64,000 bases of DNA from a bacterium (lineage in GTDB: Bacteria > Patescibacteriota > Minisyncoccia > Moranbacterales > UBA1568): NCBI GenBank assembly GCA_021821305.1, contig JAKACP010000001.1:468349-532348 (forward strand), given 5' to 3'. Of this stretch, positions 26,100 through 58,100 are shown piece after piece. A program made the position numbers and the translations under genes. How positions within the stretch are numbered: position 1 is the first letter of the stretch; each line of letters begins with the position of its first letter. Under the pieces are notes generated by a model. The model did no database searches. It had not been told where the DNA came from and worked only from the letters and a program-made list of their open reading frames with translations.

Positions 26100-26172
26100 G
26101 GGCCTGTAGTTAAGTGGTACAACGCTGCATTCGCATTGCAGAGGCGGGAGTTCGATTCTCCCCAGGTCCACC
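26100..26172 (+). tRNA. tRNA-Ala (anticodon CGC)
   Basis: Manual fold: acceptor GGGCCTG/CAGGTCC with G3:U70 wobble (Ala identity); anticodon stem CTGCA/TGCAG; loop TTCGCAT (anticodon CGC); T-arm GGGAG-TTCGATT-CTCCC; discriminator A. CCA not fully encoded. Confidence 0.8.
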
Positions 26173-26246
26173 GAGAGAAACCAAACGGATTCCCCGGAAG
26201 GGGAAAGAGGTACTTTTACAACGTGTTTTCGAGGAAGGAGAACGTG

Positions 26247-27188
26247 ATGATCCGCTTTCTGATAGCAGTACTGCTTTTCCTGCCGTTCTCCCTCGGGAGG
26301 GCCGCGGAAGGGGATATTCGCCTCGTCTTCGGGGGAGATGTGACGCTGGCCGCGTGGTATCCGGAAGTCGTTCCGGACGCCCGCGATCATGAGTGGCCGT
26401 TCGCACGGCCACAGGAACTGTTCCGCTCCGCCGATGTCGTGATGGTAAATTGCGAGACGGCGATCACCCGTTCGGAGAAACGGGAGCCGAAACAGTTCAA
26501 CTTCAAGATGGATCCCGATCTCGTATCGGTGTTTCCGAAGAGCGGTATCTCGCTCGTGACACTCGCGAACAACCATGTCTACGACTACGGAGCAGAAGGA
26601 TTGCGCGATACCCTCGCGTATCTCGATCAGGCGGGCGTGGAGCATGTCGGCGCGGGGATGACCCTCGCCGAGGCTCGAAAGCCGGTCGTTCGCGATATCA
26701 AGGGGAAGAAGTTCACCTTTCTCGGCTACGGGAACTATTCCGCGGCGACGGAGAAGGGTCCCGGGACTGCCTATCGGCACCCCGAACATGTCGCGGAGGA
26801 TGTCCGTCTCGCGAAGAAGAATGGCGCCGATATCGTGATCGTCAATTTCCACTGGGGTCTCGAGCGGGCGACCGAGCCGACCGAACGCGATCGCGCGCTC
26901 GCCCGTCTCGCGATCGACAGCGGCGCCGACGTCATCGTCGGTCATCATCCGCACGTGCTCCAGCCGGTCGAGATCTACCGGGGCAAGGTGATCGCCTATT
27001 CGTTGGGCAATTTCGTCTTCGGTGGCAACCGACGTGCGGGCAAGAACAGCGCTTTGCTGGAAATCCTCGTCGTACCATCAGGTGGCATCGCTCACCGGCT
27101 CCTGCCGATACGGATCGATACGGCGGAGACGCGGTATCAGCCGTATCTTCTCGATCCGGCCACGACGCTCGCCGATCGCTCGAATTGA
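26247..27188 (+). CDS. CapA/PgsA-family metallophosphatase (poly-gamma-glutamate capsule synthesis-like)
   Basis: Signal peptide MIRFLIAVLLFLPFSLG, then GGDVTLA…ANNHVYDYG…GHHPHVLQP. The listed ORF start 26136 overlaps the tRNA; ATG 26247 chosen. Confidence 0.75.
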   Translation: MIRFLIAVLLFLPFSLGRAAEGDIRLVFGGDVTLAAWYPEVVPDARDHEWPFARPQELFRSADVVMVNCETAITRSEKREPKQFNFKMDPDLVSVFPKSGISLVTLANNHVYDYGAEGLRDTLAYLDQAGVEHVGAGMTLAEARKPVVRDIKGKKFTFLGYGNYSAATEKGPGTAYRHPEHVAEDVRLAKKNGADIVIVNFHWGLERATEPTERDRALARLAIDSGADVIVGHHPHVLQPVEIYRGKVIAYSLGNFVFGGNRRAGKNSALLEILVVPSGGIAHRLLPIRIDTAETRYQPYLLDPATTLADRSN

Positions 27189-47063: not shown

Positions 47064-47258
47064 ATGAAATCAGCCGACATCATATCTTTTCCCGATCCGA
47101 GCGAACGAAAAAAAAGGCACTCAAAAAAGCGACGGCAGGCGAGACTCATCGATTGCCTTTTCGGTGAAATCGACCTCTTCCGACTCCTCCGGGACTCCGA
47201 AGAAAAGATCATCGCCCTCCGTCGAAAAAACAAACGGGATCCCGAGAGGAACCCATGA
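47064..47258 (+). CDS. small basic hypothetical ORF (64 aa) with good SD
   Basis: gaaaggagaatcgttcATG. MKSADIISFPDPSERKKRHSKKRRQARLIDCLFGEIDLFRLLRD… No homology recognised. Confidence 0.25.
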   Translation: MKSADIISFPDPSERKKRHSKKRRQARLIDCLFGEIDLFRLLRDSEEKIIALRRKNKRDPERNP

Positions 47259-47320
47259 ACCCCGAGCGCTCGGCCGCGAGGGGATTTTTGTTTCTCGAAA
47301 AAGATTGTCTTGAAAAAAGA

Positions 47321-47346
47321 AAATCTCCGTATGGATTCATACGGAG
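47321..47346 (-). terminator. rho-independent terminator downstream of minus-strand gene 47369..47854
   Basis: tctccgtat-ggattc-atacggaga, with T-run on the minus strand (aaagaaaa on plus at 47308-47320). Confidence 0.45.
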
Positions 47347-47368
47347 ATAGCGGTCGAATGTGGTCGCA

Positions 47369-47854
47369 TCAGCTGTCCCTTCGGAGAAGTTTCGGGGAAA
47401 CGGAATAGATGTTCCCGTTTACCGTATCCAGAACCAGGACGCGTTTCGCGGGAATGGTAGTTCCGCCTCCTCGCCGGAACGCTACGATTGTTTTTGTATA
47501 CGACTCCGCTCGTGCGGCGAAGTCGGTGAACTCACAGGGATACATGCGGAGGGATGGTCTTCCTTCCTCGACCGCAAGGACCGAAAGAAGGTGGTCGTTC
47601 AAGGATGTCTCACTGAGGACGGAATGCGTAAATCGCATCCGATCGCCCGGATACAGACAATCCTCTTCCGCCTCCTCCGGAAGATCCGATTCAAGTACGA
47701 AGGTCTTGACCAGCGCTCCCGCGTTCGGTTTCTGCGGTATCACTTTGTTGAATGATTCGCACCAGGGAACATCCCCGAAAATCGATTCATCCCATTCCCT
47801 TGGTTCCTTGCTGTGAGGAAAAGGTTCATAGTACATCATCAGTGCGTGGCCCAT
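47369..47854 (-). CDS. hypothetical protein X1 (161 aa), expressed from duplicated promoter/leader cassette
   Basis: MGHALMMYYEPFPHSKEPREWDESIFGDVPWCESFNKVIPQKP… GC about 54 percent. Strong SD (aaggag) inside the conserved leader. Confidence 0.6.
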   Translation of the reverse strand: MGHALMMYYEPFPHSKEPREWDESIFGDVPWCESFNKVIPQKPNAGALVKTFVLESDLPEEAEEDCLYPGDRMRFTHSVLSETSLNDHLLSVLAVEEGRPSLRMYPCEFTDFAARAESYTKTIVAFRRGGGTTIPAKRVLVLDTVNGNIYSVSPKLLRRDS

Positions 47855-48011
47855 CTCGGTCTCCTTCTTTCAGATTGAAAGGTTCGCGCGTCTGCGCAAG
47901 GAGATACCCCGGAAATCCGGGGAACAGGCAGACACACGACAGAGACCCTCGCGGGCGCTTTTGTGAATGTACTCAGCTGACCATCGTACTCCAAAAAGGC
48001 TTTTTTGTCAA
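47855..48011 (-). promoter_or_regulatory. consensus promoter (TTGACA-17-TACGAT) plus about 120-nt structured 5-prime leader, copy A of a duplicated cassette
   Basis: Minus strand: TTGACA (48006-48011), 17-nt spacer, TACGAT (47983-47988). Leader has CCC-GCGA-GGG (GNRA) hairpin, CCCCGG-AUUU-CCGGGG hairpin, and CUCCUU…AAGGAG pairing that can sequester the SD. About 97 percent identical to 48609-48765. Confidence 0.55.
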
Positions 48012-48089
48012 GAGATTCGGATGTCTGTTCCCGGAATCCGAGTGAAAAAACAACCCCTGAGAGAATTTTCTCTTCAGGGGCTTCGTGTG

Positions 48090-48608
48090 TCAGACATGGA
48101 CCGATTGTTCCGGTTTCATGTTGTCGCTTCGTCTGCGGGCGAAGAACTTGGAAATGGCCGCGTTGTATGCGGCGAGCGTTGTTTCGTTGCTTTCCATTTC
48201 CTGCATCAAACGGTTGAACCGGACATCGAAATCGCACATGAGCACCGCTTTCGTCTGCAAGTCGAGAGACCGGCTCTGGGTGGAGCGGGATATCTCGCAT
48301 ATTATTTCCGCGAGGTCGATCTGGTTCCGTTGAAGCGCGAAAAGGACTTCCTTTCTGGCCACGCTCAGCTCCTCCGCTGATTTTCCCGCGGTCAGTTCCG
48401 ATATTTCGAGCTCGGATGCTTCCGATTCGAATTCTTGGAGCCAGTCCGAATCCGGATTCTCCTTCAGGGCGATCGTCTCGTCCGTCGGAGCTTTCTTGCC
48501 GAATAAGGAAATGGTGTGGACCACTTCCTGCAGGGATGTCGCGAGGAATCCGGCGAACCTGGGAAAAGAAAGGTGCTGATAGCGACCTGCTAGCTGGTGA
48601 AAGTTCAT
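48090..48608 (-). CDS. hypothetical protein X2 (172 aa), expressed from the second copy of the promoter/leader cassette
   Basis: MNFHQLAGRYQHLSFPRFAGFLATSLQEVVHTISLF… Not similar to X1. Confidence 0.55.
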   Translation of the reverse strand: MNFHQLAGRYQHLSFPRFAGFLATSLQEVVHTISLFGKKAPTDETIALKENPDSDWLQEFESEASELEISELTAGKSAEELSVARKEVLFALQRNQIDLAEIICEISRSTQSRSLDLQTKAVLMCDFDVRFNRLMQEMESNETTLAAYNAAISKFFARRRSDNMKPEQSVHV

Positions 48609-48765
48609 GGTTATCTCCTTCTTTCAGATTGAAAGGTTCGCGCGTCTGCGCAAGGAGATACCCCGGAAATCCGGGGAACAGGCAGACACACGACAGAGAC
48701 CCTCGCGGGCGCTTTTGTGAACGTACTCAACTTGCCATTATACTCCGAAATGGCTTTTTTGTCAA
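48609..48765 (-). promoter_or_regulatory. consensus promoter (TTGACA-17-TATAAT) plus structured 5-prime leader, copy B
   Basis: Minus strand: TTGACA (48760-48765), 17-nt spacer, TATAAT (48737-48742). Leader 48611-48712 is identical to copy A. Confidence 0.55.
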
Positions 48766-48916
48766 GATACCGGGGTAATCCGGATATCGTTGTCGAAAAT
48801 CCAAAAAAACGTTTCATTTTTGCCCCTCCTTCTGAAAAAAGGCTTTTCAGAGATTTCGATGCCTTCAGTATAGCATGAAAATGGCTTGTAAAAAACCCTG
48901 TCCGGACACCGAAACA

Positions 48917-48944
48917 TTGACAAAAATCGGAAAACCCGTAGAAT
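48917..48944 (+). promoter_or_regulatory. sigma-70-like promoter for rplU (TTGACA-16-TAGAAT)
   Basis: TTGACA 48917-48922, 16-nt spacer, TAGAAT 48939-48944. Confidence 0.5.
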
Positions 48945-48976
48945 GGGGAATGTTACTTCTTTTTGATGGCATCCTT

Positions 48977-49288
48977 ATGTTCGCAGTGATCAAGACCGGC
49001 GGGAAACAGTACCTCGTATCCGCCGGAACCAAGGTAAAGGTCGAGAAGCTTGAGGGGGAGATCGGCTCCAAACTCTCGTTCGAGACGCTCTATGTCGGCG
49101 ATGAGAAGACCGCCGCTGTCGGTACGCCGCTCGTGTCGGGCGCCGTCGTGGAGGGAAAGATCGTCGACCAGGACCGGCACGACAAGGTCGTCGGTATCAA
49201 ATACAAGCCGAAGAAGCGCTACAAGATGAAATTCGGCCATCGTCAGGCGTATACCGAGGTCGAGATCACCAAGGTGTCGGCGAAATAG
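48977..49288 (+). CDS. rplU: 50S ribosomal protein L21
   Basis: MFAVIKTGGKQYLVSAGTKVKVEKL…KYKPKKRYKMKFGHRQAYTEVEI is the canonical L21. The listed ORF 48875 is an N-terminal extension. Confidence 0.85.
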   Translation: MFAVIKTGGKQYLVSAGTKVKVEKLEGEIGSKLSFETLYVGDEKTAAVGTPLVSGAVVEGKIVDQDRHDKVVGIKYKPKKRYKMKFGHRQAYTEVEITKVSAK

Positions 49289-57647: not shown

Positions 57648-58100
57648 GTGAGTGATATGCGAAACATCATTTCTCTTGAGCCGTTCCTTCCGTCGCTTCG
57701 CGATTTCGATCGCCTTATGAACGACGGGATCGCGACGGGCGACTTTGTCCCGGCGGTGGATATCTTCCAGGACAGGGATAATCTCGTCGTCGAGATGGCC
57801 GCGCCGAGGATCGATCCGGATAAGGTCGAAATCTCGGTCGAGTACGATGTCCTGACCATCTCCGGCCGCACGGCGTCGAAACAGGAGGTGAAGCGCGAGG
57901 ATTACTATCGCAAAGAGGTCCGTGAGGGCGGTTTCTCCCGATCGCTCATCCTCCCGATGCCCGTAAGGGGCGACAAGGCGGAAGCGACCTACGAGAACGG
58001 GACGCTGCGCGTCGTTCTTCCGAAGCGGGAAGAAGTGAAGCCGAAACGGATCGCGATCAAGGTGTCCGCGCCGCCGAAAAAACTGGCGGTCAAGAAGTAA
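57648..58100 (+). CDS. Hsp20/alpha-crystallin family small heat shock protein
   Basis: [40 protein letters not shown]…[11 protein letters not shown] is the ACD domain. Confidence 0.85.

Follow-up and report, generated by a model that had tools for sequence, protein, structure and literature searches.

The region described here lies in a stretch of 64,000 nucleotides (nt) of contig JAKACP010000001.1 (positions 468,349 to 532,348; hereafter the window), from a bacterium of the Patescibacteria. Between rplU and alaS this stretch carries two minus-strand genes, gene 1 and gene 2 (the latter called gene X below), each preceded by nearly the same promoter and 5' leader, and the leader is our main subject. 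The original prediction, made from the letters of the DNA, held that the two genes are unrelated and that the block before them, a promoter and a structured leader suggestive of a riboswitch or an RNA thermometer, had been duplicated as a unit. Both open reading frames (ORFs) stand as described (Table 1), and the two genes are indeed unrelated, the hhalign probability for the gene 1 and gene X families being 0.14%.

The blocks are borne out as a 154-nt direct repeat on the minus strand (47860-48013 and 48614-48767, 95% identical in a repeat search), and base-by-base comparison puts the longest unbroken identical run at 108 nt (47860-47967 and 48614-48721). The identical intervals first described were correct as to identity, but the second of them, 48611-48712, was about 3 nt out of register. 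The limits given for the repeat, the -35 box and the start codon, were also close: identity in fact runs to 2 nt upstream of the -35 box at the 5' end, and stops at AAGGAGA, 5 nt short of each ATG, at the 3' end. A 40-nt core of the repeat occurs exactly twice in the window and in none of 100 shuffles, and a covariance model of the leader, run exhaustively and without filters over the 64 kb, finds two full leader copies and no more (141.9 and 138.7 bits). Read 5' to 3', each copy has a near-consensus promoter and then about 120 nt of leader, the last letters of which are AAGGAGA, with 5 nt between these and the ATG. The sigma-70 promoters, TTGACA-17-TACGAT and TTGACA-17-TATAAT, are as predicted and match the consensus at 10 and at 12 of 12 positions, respectively. 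The leader presumably starts near 47974 in one copy and near 48728 in the other, judging from the promoter and from where conservation begins. Since each gene has its own intrinsic terminator, the two are independent monocistronic units; within the leaders (47855-47974 and 48609-48728) no intrinsic terminator was found, the sites returned by the scan lying only after the coding sequences (CDSs).

Table 1. Features of the gene 1 and gene X units in the window (SD, Shine-Dalgarno sequence; aa, amino acids; helices and tracts are described in the text)
Feature	Position	Strand	Remarks
Gene 1	47369-47854	-	161-aa orphan protein
Gene 2 (gene X)	48090-48608	-	172-aa orphan protein, predicted all-helical
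Gene 1 promoter	47983-48011	-	-35 TTGACA 48011-48006, 17-nt spacer, -10 TACGAT 47988-47983; 10/12 consensus
Gene X promoter	48737-48765	-	TTGACA-17-TATAAT; 12/12 consensus
Leader RNA, copy 1	47855-47974	-	putative +1 near 47974; ends at the base before the ATG (47854-47852)
Copy 1, 5' tail	47974-47957	-	
Copy 1, P1 GNRA hairpin	47956-47945	-	
Copy 1, pyrimidine tract J1/2 (anti-SD1)	47945-47940	-	
Copy 1, P2 5' strand (a)	47939-47928	-	
Copy 1, P3 hairpin	47922-47907	-	
Copy 1, anti-SD2	47905-47898	-	AUCUCCUU
Copy 1, b..c segment	47899-47884	-	P2' hairpin / P2 3' strand
Copy 1, P4 hairpin	47881-47867	-	
Copy 1, SD	47866-47860	-	AAGGAGA
Leader RNA, copy 2	48609-48728	-	copy 1 elements shifted by +754; SD AAGGAGA 48620-48614; ATG 48608-48606
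Gene 1 intrinsic terminator	47313-47348	-	11-bp stem, then T tract
Gene X intrinsic terminator	48045-48080	-	CCCCUGAAGAGAAAAUUCUCUCAGGGG then UUGUUUUUU; read from the sequence; equivalent hairpin in relatives

How widely is this arrangement found? Our sample comprises 16 distinct leaders, from syntenic loci of about ten related metagenomic genomes (Patescibacteria, with their nearest named relatives in the Minisyncoccia), so that the further copies proposed as a check on the original prediction do exist. One of the related contigs comes from a groundwater metagenome. The nearest GTDB-representative genomes, labelled Minisyncoccia or other Patescibacteria, reach an AlaRS identity of only 68%. 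The order in the relatives is rplU (minus strand), gene X where present, gene 1, an ORF of 61-64 aa (minus) and alaS (minus). The 11 homologs of gene 1, at 41-77% identity, all lie in syntenic loci of close relatives; gene 2 is an apparent orphan in a word-indexed search, and the ORFs at the same position in relatives are 39-47% identical to it. The leader is accompanied by gene 1 in all 16 cases. Gene X is absent from L007, L016/L017 and L098, where promoter and leader precede gene 1 alone, and every relative that has both genes has the same promoter and leader before each.

Compared within one genome, the two leader copies show 73-89% identity in the relatives and 96.7% in the genome of the window. 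The diverged pairs of the relatives indicate that the duplication is ancestral to the sub-clade that bears gene X, and the two copies of the window appear to have been homogenised recently, presumably by gene conversion. Duplication as a unit therefore holds insofar as there are two copies, but not as an event peculiar to this genome. Several short-read contigs break at the repeat: L001 (840 nt), L002, which starts 35 nt before gene 1, and L009, which starts inside the leader. Contigs ending in the leader are to be expected of a genuine repeat. A 202-aa protein in the collection, P0005, bears a 41-aa N-terminal extension that is simply translated leader, a gene-calling artefact. The practical effect of the repeat, then, is to break short-read assemblies and to mislead gene calling.

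The pattern of conservation is instructive. In an alignment running from promoter to ATG, the -35 and -10 boxes are kept, an 8-nt discriminator is variable, conservation restarts at (G/A)AGUAC about 7 nt past the -10 box and continues to AGGAGA, and the spacer between the SD and the ATG is variable again. This alternation of conserved and variable segments argues that the constraint acts on the transcript. When the window is compared with L003, L004 and L008, the leader is 75-93% identical (86-93% in five of the six comparisons), which may be set beside 87-97% for the CDSs of dnaB, rplU and alaS, 69-78% for the CDS of gene 1, 61-65% for that of gene X, and 65-76% for other intergenic DNA at the locus. 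At the protein level, DnaB is 99% identical among the window, L003 and L004, and the gene 1 and gene X proteins are 63-70% and 39-47% identical. The rplU-alaS interval may be described as a small hypervariable island, of which the leader is the conserved part.

The leader is not a conserved coding sequence, as it has no AUG and its 14 indel sites are nearly all length differences of 1-2 nt, which break every frame across the homologs. Stops occur in some leader frames of the homologs, and of the 68-aa ORF that spans copy 2 in the window, L003 has a frameshifted version and L004 one without a start codon. The open translations of the leader in all six frames, compared with called proteins, gave nothing at E<=10, and no ORFs miscalled over other copies came to light. 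A small-ORF or leader-peptide reading was rejected on the indel pattern and the lack of an AUG. The promoter itself has a further conserved feature, the ends of its spacer, which take the form TTGACAAAA-N6-7-TTTYGGAGTAYRMT in the relatives; in the window this form is found at only two sites, 47983-48011 and 48737-48765 (minus). This spacer may serve as an operator, or else as a promoter element peculiar to the lineage, on top of control by the RNA.

A covariance model was built from the leader-only alignment with four helices, and all copies were realigned to give alignment A7, which is fitted to this structure, fold A. The gene 1 copy of the window has a minimum free energy (MFE) of -45.7 kcal/mol (z = -2.45), and the two window copies lie between -44 and -46 kcal/mol. 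On A7, 94.2% of the cells of fold A are paired, as against 27-60% in slid controls; five pairs have changed on both sides, and the covariation score is 0.127 as against 0.095 for shuffles, with none of 500 shuffles reaching 0.127. P1 is CCC-GNRA-GGG, and its loop is a GNRA in all lineages (GCGA, GCAA, GUGA or GGGA). P2 is a 12-base-pair (bp) long-range helix, UCGUGUGUCUGC:GCAGACGCGCGA in the window, of which 9-12 pairs are kept in every sequence and which is wholly rewritten in L010 as UCGUGCAUUUG:CAAAUGCACGA. At two positions of P2, U•G pairs are found in 11-12 of the 16 sequences; read from the opposite strand they would become A·C, and the structure is therefore that of the sense transcript. 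P3 exists in 12 distinct variants, all perfectly paired (among them CCCCGG/CCGGGG, CCCGGG/CCCGGG, UCCCUGG/CCAGGGA and CCCGGGG/CCCCGGG), with loops of 3-6 nt and free sequence, and in P4 (CUUUC-loop-GAAAG) the stem never varies but the loop does. A closing helix, P0, was rejected in its window register, GGUCUCU:GGAGACC, which is 82% paired, no better than a 1-nt slide, and whose register is not conserved; a register UUCCU:AGGAG fits most relatives and is 96% paired.

A second fold competes with the first. Partition-function folding predicts that the SD is paired in all leaders (p = 0.6-1.0), to either of two pyrimidine tracts. In some leaders, both window copies included, the partner is the tract that directly follows P1. 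Most relatives differ: there strand c, the 3' strand of P2, folds instead on its neighbouring segment (strand b) as a local hairpin, P2', and the CUCCUU of the internal loop then pairs with AAGGAG. Because strand c is common to both, P2 and P2' are mutually exclusive, and the CUCCUU:AAGGAG pairing is predicted to form only alongside P2'. In the window P2' is GCGC-AGAC-GCGC. On A7 it is 93.8% paired, both sides have changed in three of its six pairs, and it scores 0.139 as against 0.077 (0/500 shuffles); as A7 is fitted to fold A, this test is not biased toward P2'. P2' has been rewritten independently as UCGUGCA/UGCACGA in L010, GAUG/CAUC in L004_X, AGGCG/CGCCU in L007 and UGUGUG-CAGA-CACACA in L099_X. 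In the last of these, G-to-A changes in strand c that improve P2 are matched by complementary C-to-U changes in strand b, which is outside P2. CUCC:GGAG is 98% paired across the leaders. Fold B would also include a helix P5, between the 5' tail and strand a (the 5' strand of P2), which is 94% paired as against 10-57% in slid controls; P5 would explain the strong conservation of an apparently single-stranded 18-nt tail.

Covariation therefore supports P1, P2, P3 and P2', and the prospect raised with the original prediction, that there might be no structural covariation, is not what was found. An unbiased comparison of all columns with all others, noisy in columns rich in G and U, found no helix beyond P2, P2' and P3. 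The three motifs first noticed, CCC-GCGA-GGG, CCCCGG-AUUU-CCGGGG and CUCCUU...AAGGAG, are all present, and the folding of all leaders supports the claim that the SD can be occluded. That first description of the architecture had, however, overlooked the dominant long-range helix P2, its competitor P2' and the second anti-SD tract.

Which of the two folds would permit translation? Constrained MFEs of fold A (with P2) and fold B (with P2' and CUCC:GGAG) differ by 0.4-8 kcal/mol depending on the sequence, and the mean constrained-ensemble difference over the 16 leaders is 0.2-0.7 kcal/mol, so that on average the folds appear to be near iso-energetic. Opening the SD within fold A costs 0-4.6 kcal/mol; this low cost makes fold A a plausible translation-competent state, with fold B the clamped one. 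Temperature has no predicted effect. Over the 16 leaders the SD has a mean unpaired probability of 0.19 at 4 °C and of 0.16 at 45 °C (SD pairing about 82-84%), and the energy difference between A and B is flat over the same range. The thermometer option of the original prediction is accordingly disfavoured.

From these elements a mechanism can be proposed. Transcription would proceed from the near-consensus sigma-70-type promoter. In fold B, the putative OFF state, the 5' tail would pair with strand a as P5, strands b and c would form the local hairpin P2', and the pairing of CUCCUU to AAGGAG would enclose P2' and P4 in a helix and clamp the SD. In fold A, the putative ON or leaky state, strand a would instead pair with strand c as the 12-bp P2, capped by P3; CUCCUU would be kept in an internal loop of 4x9 nt, the 5' tail would be free, and the pyrimidine tract that follows P1 would hold the SD only weakly. 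The ratio of A to B would be set by an effector (a small molecule, or a protein that binds RNA, perhaps that of gene 1) acting on the conserved single-stranded parts, namely the 5' tail, the GNRA loop of P1, J1/2 and the internal loop.

Does the leader belong to a known family? Rfam 15 (4227 covariance models) at gathering thresholds returned a single tRNA for the whole window, and at a permissive E<=10 there was no match centred on the leader within 47300-49000. The sole match that touches it, FdoG1_thermometer, covers 30 nt at the SD and scores 11.7 bits where its gathering score is 50. The original prediction had placed the leader in no known riboswitch class, and the Rfam scan likewise assigns it to no family. 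A degenerate leader pattern, which matches all the local copies, found 0 matches in GTDB representatives, JGI metagenome contigs and IMG/VR (two patterns). The covariance model found no leader in 935 kb around alaS from 80 AlaRS-anchored GTDB loci, nearest and more distant, and tblastn found no gene 1, gene X or small ORF (orf64) in the same 80 loci. A back-translated gene 1 profile gave 80 pattern matches in JGI metagenomes, none of them confirmed. The literature searched on regulatory RNAs of the candidate phyla radiation (CPR), that is, the Patescibacteria, holds no description of this leader or of a similar CPR leader. The RNA family is new to Rfam, then, while the bistable SD-masking leader is, as a type of mechanism, well known.

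Two weaker matches of the covariance model lie elsewhere in the window. The first (26208-26249, plus strand; 19.1 bits, E about 0.005-0.01) is just downstream of the tRNA at 26100-26170 and is a short 5' untranslated region (UTR), GAGGUACUUUUACAACGUGUUUUCGAGGAAGGAGAACGUGAUG, that has a leader-like 5' start (GAGUAC.UU.ACAA) and SD context without the structured core; the likeness may reflect a 5'-end and SD design shared in this organism, or chance. The second (57900-58048, plus strand; 11.9-14.2 bits, E 0.2-0.4) is a G+C-rich stretch and was treated as noise.

The two proteins offer little guidance. Searches of Pfam, NCBIfam, PHROGs and PDB profiles gave nothing credible for either, PADLOC gave marginal matches for gene X only (E 0.016-0.027), and the family searches revealed no recognisable RNA-binding domain and no transporter or enzyme signature in either protein. 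A profile search of 1.84 billion representatives places the gene 1 family in four real clusters. A further candidate, P0015 (1258 aa, with the gene 1 C-terminal motif nine times), proved to be the translation of a tandem DNA repeat, its Pfam matches spurious, and was rejected as a relative. Structure models are unusable (pLDDT 44.7 for gene 1, from an 11-sequence alignment, and for gene X, from a single sequence). Gene 1 does retain strongly conserved blocks despite its fast evolution, EEDCLYPGDRMRF... and RVL..D.V.G.IYSVSPKLLR. With so orphan a gene context, neither the function of the proteins nor a candidate ligand can be inferred.

The flanks of the two units have features of their own. 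Between gene 1 and alaS, at 47064-47258 (plus), is a 64-aa ORF that every relative has at this place and at much the same length (61-64 aa). It matches no known family, and the alaS regions of more distant genomes lack it. On the other side, the remaining rplU/gene X intergenic DNA (48768-48976) is another stretch that the relatives conserve. Here lie the divergent rplU promoter, TTGACA-16-TAGAAT (48917-48944, plus), and, on the minus strand, a hairpin, CUGAAAAGCCUUUUUUCAG, followed by AGGAGG and then by an ATG (48817). This ATG opens the 68-aa ORF mentioned above, which crosses the promoter and leader and is not conserved in L003 or L004.

What kind of element is this leader? We favour, with moderate confidence, a lineage-specific cis-acting 5' RNA of about 115 nt that masks the SD of two monocistronic orphan genes by means of a bistable fold; it is a new, lineage-restricted and probably bistable leader for translational control. 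A more ambitious claim, which we rate as somewhat less likely than not, is that the leader founds a new class of effector-responsive switch native to the CPR, whether a riboswitch or a feedback pair of RNA and protein, which would co-regulate two rapidly diversifying proteins by a four-strand cascade (tail:a, a:c, b:c and anti-SD:SD) with two redundant anti-SD tracts. Several points weigh against the bistable switch. The support for it is computational throughout, from 16 related sequences and nearest-neighbour thermodynamics; the sample is one narrow clade with few independent events, the shuffle controls ignore relatedness, and fold A was the structure to which A7 was fitted. As the SD and both anti-SD tracts hardly vary, masking of the SD is argued from conservation and thermodynamics and not from covariation, and the five pairs that vary in P5 do so on one side only. 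In the window's two copies fold A is favoured by 2-5 kcal/mol, yet the SD is still paired, through GGUCUCU:GGAGACC, which makes the assignment of fold A as the ON state uncertain. The CUCCUU of the internal loop may form a pseudoknot with the SD within fold A, and P2' could be a guide to co-transcriptional folding instead of a regulatory state. Finally, no effector can be named.

If the leader is a switch, what might throw it? In a strict metabolite or ion riboswitch, P1, J1/2, P2, the internal loop and P3 would form an aptamer whose ligand stabilises fold A or fold B and so sets access to the SD. Such a class would be expected to show a structured domain backed by covariation, mutually exclusive pairings that gate the SD, and a coherent association with metabolic or transport genes across taxa. 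The structured domain is there (P1, P2 and P3), as are, computationally, the exclusive pairings (P2 and P2' sharing strand c); the junction and internal-loop nucleotides are conserved, the GNRA loop would suit a tertiary dock, and the lack of a match to any known class would make this one new. In place of the gene association, however, we find two fast-evolving orphan families without transporter or enzyme signature, in one genus- or family-level clade, with 1-2 copies per locus, no matches in the GTDB-representative and JGI scans or in the 935 kb of nearest relatives, and no clue to a ligand. So narrow a distribution is atypical of metabolite riboswitches, and ligand sensing, though possible, seems to us unlikely. 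Alternatively, a protein might be the effector. The gene 1 product is the most plausible regulator, as it is present in every leader-bearing lineage, those without gene X included; it, or a dedicated RNA-binding regulator, would bind the 5' tail, P1 or the internal loop and exert feedback on both genes. This autogenous scheme is in keeping with the narrow distribution, the two-gene regulon and the strict co-occurrence of leader and gene 1 (16/16), and fits the conserved blocks of gene 1 and the position beside rplU. The hairpin followed by AUCUCCUU is loosely like the 3' end of 16S rRNA (helix 45, then the anti-SD), and mimicry of an rRNA site is conceivable; such a likeness, however, follows trivially from complementarity to the SD. 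Given also that neither protein has a recognisable RNA-binding domain or a usable structure model, we regard autogenous control as doubtful.

Perhaps the leader does not switch at all. It might be constitutive, its 5' structure guarding the mRNA from 5'-end-dependent decay and fixing a low rate of translation from a very strong promoter, with P2' as an intermediate in co-transcriptional folding and nothing more. The stable fold is what one would expect of such a leader, as is a near-consensus promoter joined to a perfect SD whose predicted pairing is permanent. A mere stabiliser, however, has no need of folds that are near iso-energetic across homologs or of two mutually exclusive helices kept by compensatory change in four independent lineages, and the conserved single-stranded 5' tail and internal loop would be left to explain. 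We take this static stabilising or tuning leader to be a serious rival, albeit an improbable one. An RNA thermometer, in which the SD-masking helix melts on warming, would suit the pairing of the SD to pyrimidine tracts, but the predicted indifference to temperature noted above (0.19 unpaired at 4 °C as against 0.16 at 45 °C, and a flat A-B difference) and the G+C-rich helices make it very unlikely. Nor does any ROSE, fourU or other thermoregulator match rise above noise, FdoG1 included, and the groundwater origin of one related contig tells in the same direction, groundwater being generally thermally stable. It remains to consider that the repeat is a non-functional recent segmental duplication, a coding or leader-peptide element, or purely an operator at the DNA level. 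The window copies are 97% identical, one frame is open through the leader, and the promoter spacer is conserved. Against these stand the diverged copy pairs of the relatives, the 14 indel sites, missing AUG and interrupted frames of the homologs, the fate of the upstream 68-aa ORF (frameshifted in L003, without its ATG in L004), the failure of translated leader to match any called protein, and strand-specific covariation with G•U pairs, which argues for RNA. We consider these explanations scarcely credible.

The probably bistable, SD-masking leader is of interest on several counts. Patescibacteria have tiny genomes, few recognisable regulators and many orphan genes. Here a leader is as conserved as housekeeping CDSs while the proteins it would control diverge several-fold faster, which suggests that the control of these proteins is more constrained than their sequences. 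It offers a compact (about 115 nt) and testable model of a bistable SD-masking switch, with covariation backing both states, and an effector, if found, would be the first functional clue to two orphan protein families. Should the leader prove to be a new effector-responsive switch, it would be among the very few regulatory RNAs defined in the largely uncultured, reduced-genome CPR, and would help to show to which cues these abundant orphan proteins respond.

How does the leader compare with known systems? In architecture it is like the bistable translational riboswitches, such as the add adenine riboswitch of Vibrio vulnificus, for which an allosteric, multi-state description has been given (PMC5847336). 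Shared features are a 5' UTR some 100-120 nt long, helices that exclude each other, one of them freeing or engaging an anti-SD strand, near iso-energetic alternative folds, and no terminator. Unlike those riboswitches, the leader matches no Rfam riboswitch, it gives no clue to a ligand, it has two anti-SD tracts instead of one, and it serves orphan genes in one narrow CPR clade instead of metabolic and transport genes across phyla. The autogenous leaders of ribosomal-protein genes (the L20-interacting leader, PMC6097659; rpmE, PMC7297116) offer a second comparison, as these too are structured, SD-occluding 5' UTRs of narrow, lineage-specific families; the ribosomal-protein neighbourhood (divergent from rplU) and the possible rRNA mimicry add to the likeness. 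In the present case, however, binding by a gene product is hypothetical, neither downstream protein can be recognised as a ribosomal protein or an RNA binder, and one leader serves two unrelated genes from separate promoters. With the ROSE and fourU thermometers it shares the masking of the SD by pyrimidine-rich strands, and with the cspA mRNA cold sensor the two alternative global folds of a long leader, but it differs from all three in its strong G-C helices, its lack of a family match, and the absence of a predicted response from 4 to 45 °C. Finally, there is a resemblance to the attenuator cascades of trp and pyrBI. Those have a terminator as their output, whereas here the output would be access to the SD, and there is no leader peptide; yet the chained, exclusive pairings of the leader (tail:a, a:c, b:c and CUCCUU:SD), running from the 5' end to the expression signal, recall the 1:2, 2:3 and 3:4 pairings of the attenuators.

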